Source: a virus
Taxonomy: Duplodnaviria; Heunggongvirae; Uroviricota; Caudoviricetes
Virus record (IMG/VR): IMGVR_UViG_2703718793_000014
Length of the DNA stretch: 37,137 nt
Direction: 5' to 3' (one strand)
Shown piece by piece: positions 5,118-35,912 of the stretch. Under the pieces are notes generated by a model, which had not been told where the DNA came from, ran no database searches, and saw only the letters and a list, made by a program, of their open reading frames with translations. The translations under genes were made by a program, and so were the position numbers. Numbering within the stretch: position 1 is the stretch's first letter; every line of letters begins with the position of its first letter.

Positions 5118-7940
5118 ATGACGGCAGAGTACATCAGGGACTGGCAACAACCGCGCCACGCAGTGGGGCGTGAAGGAACGGGGATCCCCGCTCCTGAATC
5201 CGCGCTTTCCTCCTGGCTGGATGCCTACCGGGCAGAGAACGAGCGCCGCCAGGAAATGGCTGATGCGGCGTTCTCCGCCACGCCGCTGGGCAACCTGATT
5301 AATAAAAGCCTGGACGCACAGGAAAAACAGGACAAAACCATCACACTGGCAGGAGACGCCAGAAAACAGGCACGCGGCGCGGTGGATGAAGCCATGGCCT
5401 CGCTGCGCCTGCTGCCGTCCTATCTGCGCGATCCGCTTATTCGCCACCTCTCCTTCCTGCGCAAAAAACAGGAAGCCGATCGCCGGAAAGGCAAAAAGAG
5501 CTGGCAGGCTGAACGCTACGCGCGCGGAACCCTGCGCAAAATATTCGAACGTCTGGGCCGCACCGACCACCGCTGGCTGACACCGGGTTATCGCTCCCTT
5601 GCCGGACGCGAACGCCTGGATGATTTGCTTTACCTGCCGCAGCTCAACAAACACCAGATACAGACGCTGGCCACCATGACGGCGGCGATGTTCAGCAGCA
5701 CTTTCGAAAAACTCTGCGATGGCTTTGGCGCGACCGATGGCGAGCTGACCATGGATGTAACGCTGAAGGCGTATCAGATGCTGGCCCGCATGGCGTTACA
5801 CCTGCACGCCATGCCTCCACATTATGACGCACTGACAACAGACAAAGACCGGAGGAACGAACCGGACACGGAGCTGCTGCCGGGTGCAATCCTTCGCCTG
5901 ACCTGTGCGGAATGGTGGAAACGCAAACTGTGGCTGTTACGTTGCGAGTGGCGGGAAGAACAACTCCGCGCCGCCTGTCTGGTTTCCAGAAAAACATCAC
6001 CCTATCTGAGCCAGGACGCGTTAAGCGAGTTTCGCGCACAGCGCGAGAAAACACGCGATTTCCTGAAAAGTTTCATGCTGGAAAATGAAGACGGATTCAC
6101 GATTGATCTCGAGACAGTGTATTACGCGGGAGTAAGTAACCCGGTTCACCGTAAGGCAGAAATGATGGCCACCATGAAGGGGCTGGAACTTCTGGCCGAA
6201 GCCCGTGGCGACAAAGCGGTGTTTCTGACTGTCACCTGCCCGTCAAAATACCACGCCACAACAGAGAACGGTCATCCGAATCCCAAATGGAACGGGGCCA
6301 CCATGCGCGACTCCAGCGATTACCTGGTTAACAAGTTTTTTGCGGCGGTCCGCAAGAAACTGAACCGCGACGGCCTGCGCTGGTATGGCATCCGCACGGT
6401 GGAGCCTCACCATGACGGCACCGTGCACTGGCATATGATGGTCTTTGCTCATCCGGAAGAAATCGACAGCATCGTGGCCATCACCCGCGATATTGCCATT
6501 CAGGAAGACCGCCACGAGCTGGGCAATGACATAACTCCGCGCTTTAAGGCAGAGTACGTCGACGGTTCGAAAGGTACGCCGACCAGCTACATCGCCACCT
6601 ACATCGGAAAGAACCTGGACAGCCGCGCCGTGGATGGCATTGACCCGAAAACAGGCAAGCCACGCGTTGATCACGAAACCGGAAAATCAATGGCCGAGAG
6701 CGTGGAACGCGCCATCGGCTGGGCGCGCCTTCACCGCGTCCGCCAGTTCCAGTTCTTTGGTATCCCCTCCCGTCAGGTATGGCGTGAACTCCGCCGCCTT
6801 GCCAGTCAGATGGCCCGCAACCCGGAAGGTCCACAACGTCTGGAAAATGACGCAATGGATGCGGTACTCGCTGCCGCTGATGCCGGGTGTTTTGCCACCT
6901 ACATTGAGAAACAGGGGGGCGTACTTGTTCCACGCAAGGATTACCTGATTCGCACCGCCTACGACCTCGCAGAAGAGCTGAACGATTACGGCGAGCAAAG
7001 CGTACAGATTTACGGGATCTGGTCGCCACAAATCGGGGAATCTTCCCGCGTGTGCACGCACCCGGATAACTGGAAGCTGGTAAGACGTAAACCGGAAGCG
7101 GAAGACAGCGCCCGCGAAAATGGTTTTGACCTTCAGGGCGGCCCTGCCGCCCCTTGGACTCGTGGCAATAACTGTCCCCGTGTACAGGAAACGGACAACA
7201 ACGGGACAGAACAGCCGGAAGAACGGCCAGCACCGTGGCCGCAGCTCCCTGACGGCGTTGAAGTGAACGAATGGATGCGCTCACTGAAACGGCACGAACG
7301 CCGGGCGCTGATGCGTTCGCTTCGTGACAAACAGGCAAAAAACAGCAGTGATGAAATGCAGAGCTGGACACAGAGCCGCAAACAGCAGCGGCCTTTGCCT
7401 GATAACCACGAATTACTCGCTAAAGAATGGCGGGAGTCTGCTGAATCTCTCGGCCTGCATATCGGTGAACAACAGATGCAGCACCTGTTACGGGGCGGCA
7501 GTCTGTACGTTGACGGCAGCATCATTGCACCGCAGGGATTTGAAATTGTACGCAAACCGGATACCCGCCCGGACAGCCGAATCACGCAGCTCTGGCAGCG
7601 CCTGAGCCGTAATCATGGCGTAAGCAGCACGGAGATCCGCCATAACCCGGTCGCCAGCTATCTGGCACAGCTGGGGGCATCAGACCCTAAAGCCGCCGCA
7701 CGCCTGGCATCCACACTTCAGCAGGACCAGAACACCATGAAAACACCCGTTACCGTGCTTTCTGACATGCTGCGCGCCATCCGCGACGCAGAGCACGCAC
7801 AGAGAATCAGTGAAACCACTGAACGCGCCAGCCGCAAAGCAGACCTGCTGCGGGGTGGCCTGACCAGCGGAAACAAAAAACAGACAGAAACGGGACTCAC
7901 GAATCCCGTAAATGAGCAAAAAACGCGCAGCGATATATGA
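5118..7940 (+). CDS. A: Replication initiation endonuclease (P2 gpA family rolling-circle initiator)
   Basis: 940 aa; conserved block FLTVTCPSKYHATTENGHPNPKWNG...RWYGIRTVEPHHDGTVHWHMMVFAH (metal-binding His motif) and paired catalytic tyrosines in TSYIATYIGKN. My impression is that it carries a long C-terminal extension relative to P2 A. Confidence 0.9.
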   Translation: MTAEYIRDWQQPRHAVGREGTGIPAPESALSSWLDAYRAENERRQEMADAAFSATPLGNLINKSLDAQEKQDKTITLAGDARKQARGAVDEAMASLRLLPSYLRDPLIRHLSFLRKKQEADRRKGKKSWQAERYARGTLRKIFERLGRTDHRWLTPGYRSLAGRERLDDLLYLPQLNKHQIQTLATMTAAMFSSTFEKLCDGFGATDGELTMDVTLKAYQMLARMALHLHAMPPHYDALTTDKDRRNEPDTELLPGAILRLTCAEWWKRKLWLLRCEWREEQLRAACLVSRKTSPYLSQDALSEFRAQREKTRDFLKSFMLENEDGFTIDLETVYYAGVSNPVHRKAEMMATMKGLELLAEARGDKAVFLTVTCPSKYHATTENGHPNPKWNGATMRDSSDYLVNKFFAAVRKKLNRDGLRWYGIRTVEPHHDGTVHWHMMVFAHPEEIDSIVAITRDIAIQEDRHELGNDITPRFKAEYVDGSKGTPTSYIATYIGKNLDSRAVDGIDPKTGKPRVDHETGKSMAESVERAIGWARLHRVRQFQFFGIPSRQVWRELRRLASQMARNPEGPQRLENDAMDAVLAAADAGCFATYIEKQGGVLVPRKDYLIRTAYDLAEELNDYGEQSVQIYGIWSPQIGESSRVCTHPDNWKLVRRKPEAEDSARENGFDLQGGPAAPWTRGNNCPRVQETDNNGTEQPEERPAPWPQLPDGVEVNEWMRSLKRHERRALMRSLRDKQAKNSSDEMQSWTQSRKQQRPLPDNHELLAKEWRESAESLGLHIGEQQMQHLLRGGSLYVDGSIIAPQGFEIVRKPDTRPDSRITQLWQRLSRNHGVSSTEIRHNPVASYLAQLGASDPKAAARLASTLQQDQNTMKTPVTVLSDMLRAIRDAEHAQRISETTERASRKADLLRGGLTSGNKKQTETGLTNPVNEQKTRSDI

Positions 7941-7985
7941 AGCGCGCACAAAACAGGCAAAAACGGGATTTCAGAATCCCGTAAA
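7888..7985. repeat. Two 25-bp imperfect direct repeats, each an internal palindrome (AAACGGGAnTnnnGAATCCCGTAAA); candidate parC-like centromere/operator
   Basis: Copies at 7888-7912 and 7961-7985, 73 bp apart, spanning the 3' end of A and the region just upstream of the ParM-like gene. Confidence 0.45.
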
Positions 7986-8016
7986 CGATTAATTAATCAA
8001 CATAAGGAAAAGCGAC

Positions 8017-8976
8017 ATGAAAATTTGTATCGATGACGGCTCCACCAACATCAAGCTGGCATGGACTGAGAACGGCGAACGCCGCAACGCCATCAGCCCG
8101 AACAGCTTCAAGTCGGAATGGTCTGCGCCGTTCGGTGGCACGCAGCCCGCGAACTACATGCTTGATGGCGTGCGCTATGGTTTTGATCCGGTCAGCGATC
8201 GCTTTGTCCAGACGACCGACACGCAATACCAGTACAGCGATGTGAATGTCATTGCCATTCATCACGCGCTGGTCAAATCAGGCATCACACCACAGGAAGT
8301 GGATGTGGTTGTCACCCTGCCACTGAGCGAGTATTTCGACACAAACGCACAGCCGGACATGGCCAACATCAACCGCAAAAAAGCAAACGTCATGCGCCCG
8401 GTGGCGTACCAGAACGGAAAAGCATTCACTATCCGTAACGTACGGGTTATGCCTGAATCCATTCCGGCTGGTTTTAAAGCACTGGCTGACATGAGTCCGT
8501 TTGAATCCCTGCTTATTGTGGATTTAGGCGGAACCACGCTGGATGTGGCAAAGGTTCAGGGGCAACTGGCAGGTATCAGCCAGGTGTTTTGCGATCCACA
8601 CGTAGGCGTTTCTCTGATGGCCAATGCCGTACTGTCGGTGATGGCCACTAACGGTATGCGCACCAGTCACCACATCGCCAATACCATTATCGAACATCGC
8701 CATGATGAAGCCTGGCTGCGCCAGCACATCCACAATGACGCGCATTACGCCAGCCTGATGGCGGTTATTCGTGAAAAGGAAGAAACACTGAAACAACGCG
8801 TGATCCGCGCGCTGGCGGTTTTTTCGGGTTACGGGCGGGTGATGGTTGTCGGTGGCGGGGCGGAGATTGTGGCACCCGCTATCCGCGAAGCCTGCGGAGT
8901 TAATGCGACTTTCATCGCGGACGGGGTGCCACAGTTTGCTCTGGTTAATGGGCTGTACGCAATGGACAAGGAGTAA
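8017..8976 (+). CDS. ParM/StbA-like actin-type segregation ATPase
   Basis: 319 aa; N-terminus MKICIDDGSTNIKLAW, then YSDVNVIAIHHAL, VMPESIPAGF, LLIVDLGGTTLDVA and VMVVGGGAEIV match, block for block, the ParM of plasmid R1 as I recall it (actin-fold phosphate and adenosine motifs). Confidence 0.8.
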   Translation: MKICIDDGSTNIKLAWTENGERRNAISPNSFKSEWSAPFGGTQPANYMLDGVRYGFDPVSDRFVQTTDTQYQYSDVNVIAIHHALVKSGITPQEVDVVVTLPLSEYFDTNAQPDMANINRKKANVMRPVAYQNGKAFTIRNVRVMPESIPAGFKALADMSPFESLLIVDLGGTTLDVAKVQGQLAGISQVFCDPHVGVSLMANAVLSVMATNGMRTSHHIANTIIEHRHDEAWLRQHIHNDAHYASLMAVIREKEETLKQRVIRALAVFSGYGRVMVVGGGAEIVAPAIREACGVNATFIADGVPQFALVNGLYAMDKE

Positions 8977-8980
8977 ACCA

Positions 8981-9292
8981 ATGACGACACCAACCAGACG
9001 GATAAGTTTCTATCTGAAGCCCGCCGCCGTCAAGAACGAAGGCGAAGCATGCGCATGGCTGGACAGCCTTACACCAGAAGCCCGCAAAAGCGGCCAACGC
9101 GTGGCTTTTCTGGCCGGGCTGGCACTTCTGAAAATGAATCCGGCAGAGGCTTACCGACTGGCTGCATGGGCTGACGATGAGACGTTATCAGTGACACAAA
9201 CCAGGACAGAACGCCCCGAGTCACAGCCAGTACCAACCGCACAGATAACCAGTCAGATGGCCGGAAATATCAGGGCGTTATTTCCTGAATAA
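8981..9292 (+). CDS. ParR-like centromere-binding adaptor
   Basis: 103 aa; RRISFYLKP...LDSL...RVAFLAGLALLKMNP...IRALFPE parallels R1 ParR (ribbon-helix-helix N-terminus); AAGGAG Shine-Dalgarno; immediately downstream of the ParM-like gene. Confidence 0.65.
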   Translation: MTTPTRRISFYLKPAAVKNEGEACAWLDSLTPEARKSGQRVAFLAGLALLKMNPAEAYRLAAWADDETLSVTQTRTERPESQPVPTAQITSQMAGNIRALFPE

Positions 9293-9355
9293 CACAACAT
9301 CAGGGCGAGTTCGCCCTGCTCTCCACCTCAGAACATAAACAAGGAGAACGACATA

Positions 9356-9880
9356 ATGAGCGAAATCAACTATCAGGCATTACGTGAGGCAGCACAAAAC
9401 TATCAATCGACGCTGGCGTGGTATGAGGCCATCGCGGATAACCCAAATGCTGAGCAGGATTGTAACGAAGCAGTGGCGGCGTTTAAGCGTCAAATCCGTC
9501 ATCAGGAAATGGACATTATCGCCGAGCTGCTGGAAGAACTGGAAACCAAAGACAACAGGATCGCTGAACTGGAAAAAATCGCCACTGACCATGCACTTAA
9601 ATTCCAGAAAGCACAGGACGCATTAAAGCATGCCGCTTTGCTGCATAGCCGGACGGCGCAACAAACAAATAATTTTGCAGTATCGCTTCCGGACATAAGC
9701 GAATATTTCATTAATGACGTATTTCAGCCCTTGCGATACGAGCGGAATGTTGAAAGAGCCATCATAAAGGCTGGCGGAAAAGCATTGTGGCAGGAGAAAC
9801 ACGAGGACAGAACGCATCAGTCCTGCGATGTAAATTGTGGATGGTTTAGCCCACTGACGACAGATAAAAATAACACCTGA
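9356..9880 (+). CDS. Hypothetical coiled-coil protein (174 aa) in the replication-to-cos cargo island
   Basis: AAGGAG Shine-Dalgarno; N-terminal MSEINYQALREAA and a heptad-like acidic stretch; C-terminal Cys/His cluster HQSCDVNCGW. Function unknown. Confidence 0.55.
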   Translation: MSEINYQALREAAQNYQSTLAWYEAIADNPNAEQDCNEAVAAFKRQIRHQEMDIIAELLEELETKDNRIAELEKIATDHALKFQKAQDALKHAALLHSRTAQQTNNFAVSLPDISEYFINDVFQPLRYERNVERAIIKAGGKALWQEKHEDRTHQSCDVNCGWFSPLTTDKNNT

Positions 9881-9920
9881 TCTCCCTCAAACCAGGGCGA
9901 TAATCGCGCATCGCCCTGCT

Positions 9921-9946
9921 GCACAATAGTGCACAAATTTGCACAA
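9921..9946. repeat. Three GCACAA repeats phased at exactly 10 bp
   Basis: GCACAATAGT GCACAAATTT GCACAA starting at 9921, 9931 and 9941; helical phasing suggests a protein-binding array near the presumed packaging site. Confidence 0.4.
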
Positions 9947-10029
9947 TTTTTTTGAACGACTTTTTACCCTTCAGGCCCGCATGGCGGCTGGATCCGTCAA
10001 GGATCCGTGCATGCACAAAAAAACGCGTT

Positions 10030-10070
10030 TTTTCTGCGCGCAGGTGACGGGGGAACAGCCCGCGTTTCAG
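10030..10070. other. Putative cos (cohesive-end) region
   Basis: Non-coding stretch between the cargo island and portal Q, where P2-like genomes place cos; G-rich motif GGTGACGGGGGAACAGCCCGC loosely resembles P2/186 cohesive-end sequences. The exact site cannot be fixed by eye. Confidence 0.25.
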
Positions 10071-10370
10071 GGGGTAAATAGCATTCCCTGAACGATGTCG
10101 CAGAGATACAACAGAATGGCTGTATTTCTCACGCTGAGCGTGAAAAAGACGTGAGAGCTTTTGATTTGATGGGGTGAAAGGTAAGGCCGTCAAAATCGCA
10201 CTGAGACGGCGAGAACATGCAGTCAACGCGGTGGGATTGCGTAAGAGCCTGACTGTCGATGATGGCAATAAGCAGGAAAGCGTCGTGAAATTATCTGATT
10301 GATACAGGAGCTGGAGAGTCGGGGCATAAATTTTTTATGCCCCGGCGAAGCAGCAGACAAGCGAAGCGCG

Positions 10371-29876: not shown

Positions 29877-30389
29877 TCAGCCAAGCCCAAGCGCGGAACG
29901 GATGCGATCGGGCACAATGTCCTTGCCGTCCTTCCGGTAAATGAAGTTCAGCAGGTCAATCTCCCACAACGGGCGATCGTTAACACTCAGCTTGTAGTAG
30001 GTGTTTTTAATGGCGTAAGTGTGTGATGTGGCTTCGCCCTGTTTGGCTTCCCCCATATCAATTTCCGTCACACGTCCGCGCATTTCGACTTCATACAGGT
30101 CGCTTTCATCATCGGTGTAGTATTCCCCCGCAAAACGCAGTAGCGTGCCGTCAATCGTGCCGCCATACTTCAGGAACAGCTCACGAACTGCGCCCCCCAT
30201 GACAAAGCTCGCATCAAGCGCGGAGTCGTCCAGGCCGAGGTCAATACTTACCGCACCCATCATGCCACCACCCCGGTAGCTGTCGGTTTTGCGCGTCAGT
30301 TTAGGCAGGGTGACGGACGTCACCTTACCCACTTCGTTTTCACCATCCACAAACAGCGTAAAAAAGCGAAGATGTTTTGGTACAGCCAT
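29877..30389 (-). CDS. FII: Tail tube protein FII
   Basis: 170 aa; gpFII-like; overlaps the sheath gene stop by one base. Confidence 0.88.
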   Translation of the reverse strand: MAVPKHLRFFTLFVDGENEVGKVTSVTLPKLTRKTDSYRGGGMMGAVSIDLGLDDSALDASFVMGGAVRELFLKYGGTIDGTLLRFAGEYYTDDESDLYEVEMRGRVTEIDMGEAKQGEATSHTYAIKNTYYKLSVNDRPLWEIDLLNFIYRKDGKDIVPDRIRSALGLG

Positions 30390-32995: not shown

Positions 32996-34066
32996 ATGTC
33001 TCTAGTTACCCGCAATGTATTCATTGATACTGAGTTTTTTGTAAAAGCAAACCTGGACTTCAACTCAAAAACTATAAAATCATTTGAAGAACTATGTAGA
33101 AATGATGAGTTCAGGCATATTTCTACAACAATTGTAGTTAAAGAAGTTGAGCGAAAAATCATCGAGCATATACAAGAAGCATTGAAAGGGATTAACAATT
33201 TCCGACGAAAGGCTGTTATCCTCAAAGAATATGAAGATGACAATATTAAAAATCTATTTTGTGAAATTAATGAAACAGACATTCGAGAAAAGGCATTAAG
33301 CGCATTTAATGGTTTCATGGAGGACTCAAACACAACTATTGTAGATATGTCGAAGGTGGACCTCAATGAAGTTATAGACATGTACTTTGATAAAAAAAGC
33401 CCCTTTAGTGCGAAAAAACCTAACGAATTTCGAGACGCCTTCACTCTTTTAGCAATACGTTCCGCGCTAGGAGATAATGAAAAAATTTATGTGGTTTCAG
33501 AAGACCCTGACCTAAAAGGTTACTGTGAAGACAATGATAATTTCATAATTATAGGAGCACTAAACTTACTACTAGATGATTACAACAAACACAATGACGA
33601 AAGAACTGGATTTATAGAACGTTTTTTAGAAAGCAAAAATGAAGAAATCATACAAAAATTAACGGAAGAATTAGAAACTGCTGAAGCTTATAATTCTTCA
33701 ACATGGGAAGACTCAGAGATTGATAGCTTTGAAATTACGAACATAAGCGAATTTGAACCCAAAATAATTCATTTGGATGACGAAAGTTGTCAAATTACTT
33801 TTGATGTTACTGTTAGTTTTAATGTCACTGCCAGCGGACCTGATACCGCAAACGGCTATTATGACAAAGAGGATGGAAAATTTTATACCTTTGACACCGT
33901 ATCTAATCACGAGGAGGAGGAAAAGGATTTTACAGTAGAACTAGAATTATTCTTTGAAATAGACGAAGGCCAGTTTATCAATGATGAGTTTAATTTGCAC
34001 ATAAATGGACTGGATGCTGGTATTGAATTTTGTGTCGATGAAAACTCATGGGAAGACTATAGATAG
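32996..34066 (+). CDS. PIN-like nuclease domain protein with acidic C-terminal domain of unknown function (cargo gene)
   Basis: 356 aa, markedly AT-rich, AAAGGAG Shine-Dalgarno. Ordered PIN hallmarks: VFIDTEFF (first Asp), VVKEVERK (Glu), IVDMSKVD, YVVSEDPDLKGY (Ser-x-Asp-x-Asp). No partner gene visible. Confidence 0.6.
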   Translation: MSLVTRNVFIDTEFFVKANLDFNSKTIKSFEELCRNDEFRHISTTIVVKEVERKIIEHIQEALKGINNFRRKAVILKEYEDDNIKNLFCEINETDIREKALSAFNGFMEDSNTTIVDMSKVDLNEVIDMYFDKKSPFSAKKPNEFRDAFTLLAIRSALGDNEKIYVVSEDPDLKGYCEDNDNFIIIGALNLLLDDYNKHNDERTGFIERFLESKNEEIIQKLTEELETAEAYNSSTWEDSEIDSFEITNISEFEPKIIHLDDESCQITFDVTVSFNVTASGPDTANGYYDKEDGKFYTFDTVSNHEEEEKDFTVELELFFEIDEGQFINDEFNLHINGLDAGIEFCVDENSWEDYR

Positions 34067-34602: not shown

Positions 34603-34743
34603 ATGTCGCAAAAATCGCTTACGGCCATCACGTTCTGCGTGACCGTAATCCTCATCATCTGGATGCTGCACGGTTCGCTGTGTGAAATACGGATGAGCTT
34701 CTGGGGAGCGGAGTTTGCGGCGTTCTTACAGTGTAAGCAGTAA
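34603..34743 (+). CDS. Hok/Gef-family type I toxin (46 aa)
   Basis: AAAGGAG Shine-Dalgarno; translation MSQKSLTAITFCVTVILIIWMLHGSLCEIRMSFWGAEFAAFLQCKQ has the Hok architecture: N-terminal TM helix, SLCEIR motif, E(F/V)AAF(L/M) motif. Below the size cutoff of the ORF track. Confidence 0.65.
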   Translation: MSQKSLTAITFCVTVILIIWMLHGSLCEIRMSFWGAEFAAFLQCKQ

Positions 34744-34866: not shown

Positions 34867-34978
34867 TATCCCCATCCATAAGCAATAGGCATAACAGATC
34901 GATGCAATAAATCCGATCGATAAAAACGATCGATTTGTTATCATATCGGCAGCAGTAACCACACAAGAGGTGCCGCAA

Positions 34979-35176
34979 ATGACGCAAAATGTACGATGCA
35001 AAAATTGCAACAAACTACTTGCCCGCGCCTCATTTCACTACATTGAAATAAAATGTCCGCGCTGCAAAACACTTAACCAGATAACGAGAGCCATCGAGCC
35101 CCCCACACACATGAGGAGTTATGACCGTGGGGATCGCAATCCAGCACCAACCAGCACATACACCGGAACACACTAA
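34979..35176 (+). CDS. com: Mu Com-like zinc-finger translational regulator
   Basis: N-terminus MTQNVRCKNCNKLLARASFHYIEIKCPRCK is near-identical in pattern to Mu Com (RCKNCNKLL...HIEIRCPRCK); its 3' end overlaps the start of the downstream methyltransferase frame. Confidence 0.8.
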   Translation: MTQNVRCKNCNKLLARASFHYIEIKCPRCKTLNQITRAIEPPTHMRSYDRGDRNPAPTSTYTGTH

Positions 35177-35912
35177 GGTTTATCAGACTGACAATGCCAT
35201 GCTCTGTCGTGGGAATGCGCTGGAAATATTGCCGCTGATTGAGCCAGAAAGCATTGATGCCTTAATCACTGACCCGCCTTACAGTTCGGGGGCGACACAC
35301 AAGGCCGGACGCACCAACCAGGGCAGCCATGCAAAATATCTGAACGGCGAGAACCTTCACCGCTTTGATGGGTTCGCGGGTGAAAACATGGACGCCCGTT
35401 CGTGGGCTTACTGAACACAATTATGGATGGCACAGGCACACCGCGCAGTCAGGCCGGGCGGTTATGCCCTGGTATTTACTGACTGGCGACAACTACCAGC
35501 TTTAACCGATGCGTTTCAGGCCAGTGGCTTTACATGGCGCGGCATTATTGCGTGGAACAAAGGGAGGGGGTCACGAACACCACATACCGGGTATTTCCGG
35601 CATCAGTGCGAATACATCGTCTGGGGCAGCAAAGGCCATTTAGATAAATCGCCTTCGGGACCGTTCGACGGCTGCATGACGTTCCCGGTTATCCCGTCAA
35701 AGAAAATGCACCCGACCGGAAAACCAGAAGAACTAATGGCGGAACTGGTCAGGACTGTGAATAGTGGCGGAACAGTCCTTGATCCTTTTATGGGGTCAGG
35801 GACAACGGGTGTGGCTGCACTGAAAGCAGGACGCAAATTTATTGGTATAGAAACCAGTGATCATTATTTTGATGTAGCAACACAACGGCTCAAAACGGCG
35901 ATCGAACCATAA
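35121..35912 (+). pseudogene. Beta-class N6-adenine DNA methyltransferase interrupted by a single in-frame TGA (35412-35414)
   Basis: Motif IV ALITDPPYSSG in the upstream segment and motif I LDPFMGSGTTGVAA in the downstream segment are in the same reading frame, separated by one TGA; motif order IV then I indicates beta class. Start uncertain (35121 or internal ATG 35199). Confidence 0.6.

Follow-up and report, generated by a model that had tools for sequence, protein, structure and literature searches.

Type II (ParMRC) DNA-segregation systems, which combine an actin-like ATPase (ParM), an adaptor protein (ParR) and a centromere (parC), are represented most familiarly by the parMRC (stbAB) loci of R1 and NR1, but related systems have also been described on elements that reside in a chromosome. 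In the SXT/R391 elements, the ParM-type system SrpMRC acts together with a toxin-antitoxin system to protect the excised, replicating element from loss; its centromere, srpC, comprises four 13-bp repeats, both direct and inverted, and R391 combines TraI/oriT replication with srpMRC and hipAB (Carraro et al. 2015, PMC4489591). In the integrated prophage CGP3 of Corynebacterium glutamicum, the AlpAC/alpS system, whose genes are switched on early in induction, pairs an actin-like protein with a co-transcribed adaptor and works on the circular phage DNA once it has been excised; AlpA binds upstream of alpAC, and efficient replication of CGP3 requires AlpA as well as AlpC (Donovan et al. 2015, PMC4446434). 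Chromosomal ParMR cassettes are also known from Firmicutes (Desulfitobacterium and Clostridium), one of them, from a clostridial genome, with a palindromic parC that is bound by ParR, and the function of these cassettes is unknown (Ali et al. 2025, PMC12270681). Here we report on a ParMRC module in a stretch of 37,137 nucleotides of tailed-phage DNA (IMG/VR record IMGVR_UViG_2703718793_000014; Caudoviricetes), henceforth the window. A complete actin-type module, made up of ParM, ParR and upstream repeats, had been proposed for this DNA from its letters and open reading frames (ORFs) alone (the sequence-only reading), and all three elements are present. We lean towards the view that they form a functional type II DNA-segregation module, lodged in the conserved backbone of P88-like phages and acting on extrachromosomal phage circles.

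The first gene of the module, parM (window 8017..8976, plus strand), encodes an actin-like ATPase of 319 aa that was identified by both Pfam and phmmer searches. The protein matches StbA_N (PF06406; 6.8e-82) and the ParM C-terminal domain (PF21523; 1.2e-68), and a phmmer search against the PDB aligned its residues 2-316 with R1 ParM (1MWK) at 1e-92, meaning that the comparison with ParM profiles bears out the predicted ParM-like ATPase as a full-length ParM. It is about 50% identical to R1 ParM over the full length, which falls within the range of the plasmid ParMs as a whole (~47-52%, and ~52% at most). The phosphate-binding/adenosine and nucleotide-binding motifs (DDGSTNIK, DLGGTTLD and GGGAE) are all retained, and by its domains and motifs the protein is thus the actin-fold ATPase that defines a type II system. 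Purifying selection on parM is strong: the ratio of nonsynonymous to synonymous divergence (dN/dS) ranges from 0.04 to 0.16, with 0.04 found at dS 0.64 in the comparison with the Hafnia copy, and the 319-aa ORF is intact in 85 of the 88 loci compared.

The second gene, parR (8981..9292, plus strand), starts with the ATG at 8981 and encodes an adaptor protein of 103 aa (a longer TTG start at 8846 in the ORF list would overlap parM). The predicted ParR-like adaptor is confirmed by a match to Pfam Plasmid_stab_B (PF10784; 5.4e-25) and by a profile of 9 phage and 3 plasmid ParRs that matches the structure of pB171 ParR (PDB 2JD3) at 2.8e-11. In the N-terminal DNA-binding region the strand RRISFYLKP is invariant among alleles and the helices are conserved, and both sequence and profile evidence point to the ribbon-helix-helix domain expected of the family. 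This region is followed by a variable linker rich in P, Q and E (approximately residues 64-92) and then by a conserved C-terminal tail, NIRALFPE, which in the alignment of alleles takes the form x-N-I-R/Q-x-L/F-F-P-E. The N-I-R-A-L-F stretch of the tail lines up with the C-terminal ends of R1 StbB (EETKKNAMKLIN) and the pEC571_3 ParR (ETRNNIKNLFPDDE), another IncF ParR. The C-terminal residues of R1 ParR are reported to bind ParM.

We also observed that parR is considerably more diverse than parM. At least seven parR allele families can be told apart, chiefly by their linkers, and within one and the same pair of phages dS was 0.12 for parM vs. 0.82 for parR. The DNA similarity to several phages moreover breaks off near parR codon 18 (query position 1186). 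This contrast and this break mark parR as a recombination mosaic, and the left edge of the exchangeable island seems to lie inside the gene. A ParR that is "42% identical" was discarded as a true allele, as it is apparently the product of a frameshift within a decayed prophage, while covariation between ParR alleles and repeats proved uninformative, given that all alleles share both the N-terminal strand and the palindromes.

The third element lies upstream of parM. A repeat search returned two 42-nt direct repeats (7874..7915 and 7947..7988) which are 81% identical and spaced 73 bp apart. Each is a candidate parC half, composed of an A/C-rich arm and a palindrome with the core ACGGGA-N8-TCCCGT (copy 1, ACGGGACTCACGAATCCCGT at 7890-7909; copy 2, ACGGGATTTCAGAATCCCGT at 7963-7982). 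The two 25-bp palindromic repeats, 73 bp apart, of the sequence-only reading are therefore real and constitute the cores of these units (7889-7913 and 7962-7986); what that reading did not mention is that copy 1 falls within the 3' coding end of gene A (the last ~20 codons; gpA stop at 7940). Copy 2 ends 28 bp ahead of the parM start codon. The pair is no mere chance resemblance: across the 37-kb window, CGGGATTNNNNAATCCCG occurs at 0-1 mismatch at just these two sites, with three further matches at 3 mismatches.

Both repeat copies and their spacing are kept in relatives, including a Hafnia phage in which the flanking DNA has diverged. To quantify this conservation, we used 51 distinct upstream sequences taken from 81 loci. 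The half-site cores were near-invariant in this set, synonymous third-codon positions of the gpA tail included, and the spacing of 73 bp was constant. Common polymorphisms fell in the central spacer in copy 1 (7896 and 7901), and at both central (7972 and 7974) and outer (7963 and 7980) positions in copy 2. Invariant half-sites around a variable centre are the pattern that a dimer-of-dimers operator would show, and a hairpin would show it equally. A spacing of 73 bp corresponds to about 7 helical turns and places the two copies on the same face of the helix. All ParMRC relatives examined have a repeat set of their own upstream of parM (e.g., two long copies 61 bp apart in pEC571_3, or palindromes in a Pantoea plasmid), and in the window the canonical parC position, directly upstream of parM, is occupied by the two conserved palindromic 42-nt repeats. 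Considering this position, the shared helical face, the repeat sets of relatives and the palindromic or inverted repeats bound by ParR or SrpR in other systems, the repeats are probably parC.

The module belongs to a widespread phage lineage. A sequence search found the window DNA to be ~97% identical to Escherichia phage P88 and to Xuanwuvirus P884B11 (Peduoviridae), which makes the window phage a P88-like (Xuanwuvirus, Peduoviridae) relative of P2. The window encodes an integrase, a C-like helix-turn-helix protein, Cox, Ogr and P2-type late genes, in agreement with its initial description as an integrating P2 relative. The parM gene (at a coverage of at least 80%) was found in 1279 of 5426 complete E. 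coli genomes (~24%), and it accompanies ~96% of the P88-type gpA cores, which were present in 1328 of these genomes; strains with this lineage include O157, O26, O103 and O145, among others. In every relative whose contig was compared, the Hafnia phage included, the gene order was gpA-parM-parR-(variable)-portal. By contrast, at least 10 different first ORFs (51 to 381 aa, the larger products having 360-381 aa) follow parR among the 88 loci. The ParMRC module is thus part of the conserved backbone of P88-like phages, and the variable island begins after parR. Of what had been said about its location, the place immediately after gene A, between gene A and cos, is correct, and the proposed survey of related prophages found the module at the same place in every relative examined; its assignment to a variable cargo island is contradicted by the co-occurrence with gpA, the fixed place and the restriction of variable genes to the DNA beyond parR.

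The stretch from parR to the portal gene (window 9293-10370 and its counterparts in the 88 loci) is itself a true hotspot of variable genes. In the window its first gene, outside the module, encodes an Ead/Ea22-like protein of 174 aa (9356..9880, plus strand; Pfam PF13935, 7.1e-16). A long perfect palindrome (CGGGGCATAAATTTTTTATGCCCCG) at 10320-10345, immediately past the cos-side end of the portal gene, possibly terminates the late P-Q transcript.

Within the phage collection, ParM homologues were confined to P88-like phages and the P1-like phage D6. A tblastn search with ParR against the 72,556 plasmids of PLSDB gave no genuine plasmid match, only seven records with phage-like regions. Recent capture of the module from a plasmid was ruled out, as plasmid ParMs reach no more than ~52% identity and the ParR lineage occurs on no true PLSDB plasmid; as judged by sequence, the window ParMR pair is an old phage lineage of its family. 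It should be added that a scan of genome contigs with ParM yielded only three near-identical loci and a scan of viral contigs 80 loci, all of them 98-99% identical and so suited to population statistics and unsuited to deep comparison. We also came across a ParM 97% identical to the E. coli phage ParM on a 226-kb contig of the Firmicute assembly "Vagococcus sp. WN89Y" (NZ_JBQPOM010000071.1), which is likely contaminated with enterobacterial DNA. Both genes already carry names in RefSeq/GenBank ("plasmid segregation protein ParM" and "plasmid partitioning/stability family protein"), so their existence is known from annotation, while full-text literature searches turned up no paper devoted to the ParM or ParR of P88 or of further P2-like coliphages, nor one on what such a module does for a phage that as a rule integrates. 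Such "plasmid segregation protein" labels can mislead plasmid/prophage classifiers and replicon typing.

Gene A itself (5118..7940, plus strand) encodes the rolling-circle replication initiator gpA (940 aa; Pfam Phage_GPA, 5.9e-131), the only replication initiator identified in the window. It is 30% identical to P2 gpA over 747 aligned positions. It is also longer than its P2 counterpart (940 aa vs. 761 aa), and the alignment with P2 stops near residue 800, leaving ~140 C-terminal residues that are specific to the lineage. Despite only 30% identity between the proteins, DNA alignment to the annotated P2 ori nick site (position 29892 of the P2 record; window equivalent near 7156) revealed the conserved pattern GCGGC..GCCGC.CCT.GGA.TC.TG.CAATAACTGT, and the gpA nick region at 7138..7175 (plus strand) is accordingly the probable origin of replication (ori) of this phage. 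This region lies ~715 bp upstream of the repeats, and the idea that the palindromes themselves are the gpA origin was ruled out by the alignment of the P2 nick-site sequence there.

The two module genes are co-oriented with gene A, with parM starting 76 bp downstream of it. A simple consensus scan detected no sigma-70-like promoter in 7700-9500, nor the ParR-autoregulated promoter within parC that is typical of type II ParMRC systems, and a terminator scan detected no plus-strand terminator between gene A and parM. The best promoter-like candidate, located by eye between the repeats, is weak (ATGAGC-17-TATATG, 7/12). Given this shared orientation and the lack of any recognisable promoter or plus-strand terminator in the intervening DNA, parM and parR would be expressed with the early replication operon. 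The P2 genes tin and old, by comparison, lie on the opposite strand and have their own transcript starts, and in its co-orientation with A the module resembles P2 orf91 instead. The parallel with tin/old drawn in the sequence-only reading consequently holds for location, since the A-to-cos region does correspond, and fails for the kind of locus, since co-orientation with A sets the module apart from a lysogenic-conversion or exclusion cassette.

As regards the repeats, an alternative is that the ParMR pair is real while the repeats are RNA-level elements and no centromere, with parC located elsewhere, e.g., in the A/C-rich tracts alone, which resemble the A/C-rich iterons of R1. They could act as intrinsic terminators on the minus strand that keep antisense transcription out of gene A and ori, or as hairpins that stabilise the early mRNA. 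The terminator scan did flag both repeats on the minus strand (8-pair stem, 4-nt loop and T-rich tail), where the conserved A-rich arm of the 42-nt unit is exactly the T-tract; the predicted hairpins reach -9 to -12 kcal/mol (z -1.7 to -3.2), and in plus-strand RNA two of the common polymorphisms (7963 A>G and 7980 C>T) would still allow G-U pairs to form. However, from the repeats to the portal gene the window has no minus-strand gene, and the far side of the portal gene already offers a long perfect hairpin (10320-10345). A conserved stem with a variable centre is just as compatible with a protein-binding palindrome, and no compensatory double changes were seen. The site directly upstream of parM and the same-face spacing suit a ParR site, and palindromic or inverted repeats are what ParR binds in other ParMRC systems of chromosomes or integrative and conjugative elements (ICEs; PMC12270681, PMC4489591). 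We consider an RNA-level role of the repeats a serious rival, though an unlikely one.

Two further alternatives concern the purpose of the module as a whole. P88-like phages could be facultative phage-plasmids that, in place of integrating, persist as low-copy circular prophages with the help of ParMRC and a Hok/Gef killer. A Hok/Gef gene is indeed present in the P88-like phage, the only other ParM-bearing phage in the collection (D6) is P1-like and treated as a phage-plasmid of the P1 group (PMC10879196), and a complete circular P88-like genome of 34,461 bp with an integrase (NZ_CP148288.1) is listed in PLSDB as an E. coli plasmid from a cat isolate; 4 kb of this genome recur with 100% identity in a chromosomal prophage of a human isolate from the same project. 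Yet this is the one phage-sized circular P88-like record among the PLSDB plasmids and may represent an excised, replicating phage captured in a long-read assembly. In complete E. coli genomes, 1441 of the 1443 places with parM are chromosomal (the other 2 are on plasmid records), meaning that a plasmid lifestyle cannot be the normal state, contrary to the phage-plasmid behaviour initially suggested. Integrase, repressor and Cox are intact, rolling-circle gpA is the sole replication initiator identified, and, unlike the low-copy extrachromosomal replicons with which type II ParMRC is associated, the carrier is an integrating phage; neither the extrachromosomal prophages nor the plasmid records that would characterise a phage-plasmid were found as a rule. 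We regard facultative plasmid maintenance as quite improbable. Co-option for exclusion or defence, e.g., ParR/ParM interfering with incoming phages or plasmids in the manner of P2 tin/old, would agree with the A-to-cos location, with the variable-gene hotspot directly downstream and with the deep divergence of parR alleles relative to parM. This suggestion of the sequence-only reading nevertheless found no support: PADLOC returned no match for ParM or ParR, and instead of the variable presence, lysogen expression and defence similarity of exclusion cargo we found a conserved module, co-oriented with the early operon and lacking a detectable promoter for expression in the lysogen. In addition, selection on parM is strongly purifying, every polymerase-type motif is retained, and ParR varies mainly in its linker, with the strand of its DNA-binding region, its putative ParM-binding tail and the repeats all held constant, which is unlike changing specificity; no PLSDB plasmid carries a ParR of this lineage that could serve as a target. 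An exclusion role is accordingly very improbable.

The reading that we prefer, a segregation module for extrachromosomal phage circles, would work as follows. ParR dimers would bind both repeat units, which would jointly serve as parC upstream of parM, and the ParR C-terminal tail would capture the ends of ATP-ParM filaments. Growth of a filament between two ParR-parC complexes would then separate phage DNA circles. The substrates would be the extrachromosomal circles that arise from gpA rolling-circle replication, either after infection or after excision, and their distribution or positioning would let dividing cells keep the element until integration or packaging. The proteins, their conservation and the repeats are established from sequence; binding of ParR to the repeats, early expression and a role in stabilising or positioning a transient episomal form are inferred and make up the best available account of the locus.

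Several points weigh against this account. A single non-replicating circle gains nothing from partition, so any benefit depends on replication in surviving cells, which is undocumented for P2-type phages. Two palindromes (i.e., four half-sites) make a small centromere beside the ten iterons of R1, and on the minus strand each repeat reads as a hairpin followed by a T-rich tract, much like a terminator. The lack of a promoter comes from a simple consensus scan, and a weak ParR-controlled promoter may exist between the repeats. Finally, the AlphaFold2 monomer model of ParR (mean predicted local distance difference test score, pLDDT, of 54) is too poor for a test of the fold.

More tentatively, P88-like phages may pass through a replicating, actively partitioned plasmid-like stage, such as a carrier state that follows infection or non-lethal excision, or ParM filaments may serve to organise their rolling-circle replication and packaging, a pair of options that we consider possible rather than probable. 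Were either true, no earlier R1-type ParMRC would have a demonstrated life-cycle role in an integrating tailed phage of enterobacteria. Should the module function as proposed, partition would extend beyond plasmids and count among the ordinary features of a very common lineage of integrating coliphages. The results obtained with an ICE (SrpMRC) and with an actinobacterial prophage (AlpAC) would then be extended to the best-understood ParM family, in a genetically tractable host that allows imaging of filament dynamics, of ParR-parC capping and of phage replication.

Several other genes of the window deserve mention. An ORF of 46 aa at 34603-34743 belongs to the Hok/Gef family (Pfam, 3.7e-07) and is annotated in P88 and NZ_CP148288.1 as well, such that a plasmid-type killer gene and a plasmid-type partition module occur in one phage. 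Directly before ogr, a 356-aa protein (32996-34066) carries an N-terminal PIN_12 domain (1.5e-20) and is possibly an accessory or defence gene at another variable site. The region 34970-35912 contains a Com-like zinc-ribbon gene followed by a DNA methylase that is seemingly split into two ORFs (35121-35414 and 35427-35912), of which the second alone has a match to N6_N4_Mtase. The methyltransferase of NZ_CP148288.1 is encoded by one coding sequence of 792 nt, and the split in the window is possibly due to a frameshift or a sequencing error.

Compared with the systems introduced above, the window module is closest in its proteins to R1/NR1 parMRC, with which it has in common the gene order repeats-parM-parR, the Pfam family of ParR and its N-terminal strand-helix-helix region. 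It differs in that the host replicon is an integrating P2-type phage, in the length of ParR (103 aa vs. 116-140 aa in plasmid ParRs), in the candidate centromere (two 42-nt units with palindromic cores vs. ten 11-bp iterons in R1) and in that this region, unlike an R1-type parC, has no detected promoter. Phage D6 has a StbA-type locus with a ParM homologue that is 47.8% identical, repeats upstream of parM and an annotation that reads "similar to phage P88 StbA protein"; D6 is, however, a 91-kb phage of the P1 phage-plasmid group (PMC10879196), and its ParR match is limited to the N-terminal 49 residues at 35% identity. As for the cassettes of Firmicutes, phages and prophages go unmentioned in the main text of PMC12270681, whereas the window module is unambiguously phage-borne. 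The arrangement in the window, adjacent to and co-oriented with gene A and ori, is compatible with DNA positioning of the AlpAC kind, although AlpAC belongs to a Gram-positive host and an unrelated phage type and is given no assignment to the R1 ParM family in PMC4446434. SrpMRC was reported to have an SrpR with no homology to known ParRs and an SrpM distant from R1 ParM (PMC4489591), whereas the window proteins are clear members of the R1 family, and it is an ICE system of demonstrated function, whereas the window module is a phage system known from sequence. The likeness lies in the overall design: an integrated element that uses a rolling-circle-type initiator once excised, a ParM-type locus by the origin, a centromere of few repeats and a toxin, to which the window phage corresponds with rolling-circle replication, partition and a possible killer gene (Hok/Gef). 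SrpMRC, for which the same logic has been shown experimentally, and AlpAC close behind it may thus be taken as analogues of the role that we propose for the ParMRC module of P88-like phages.

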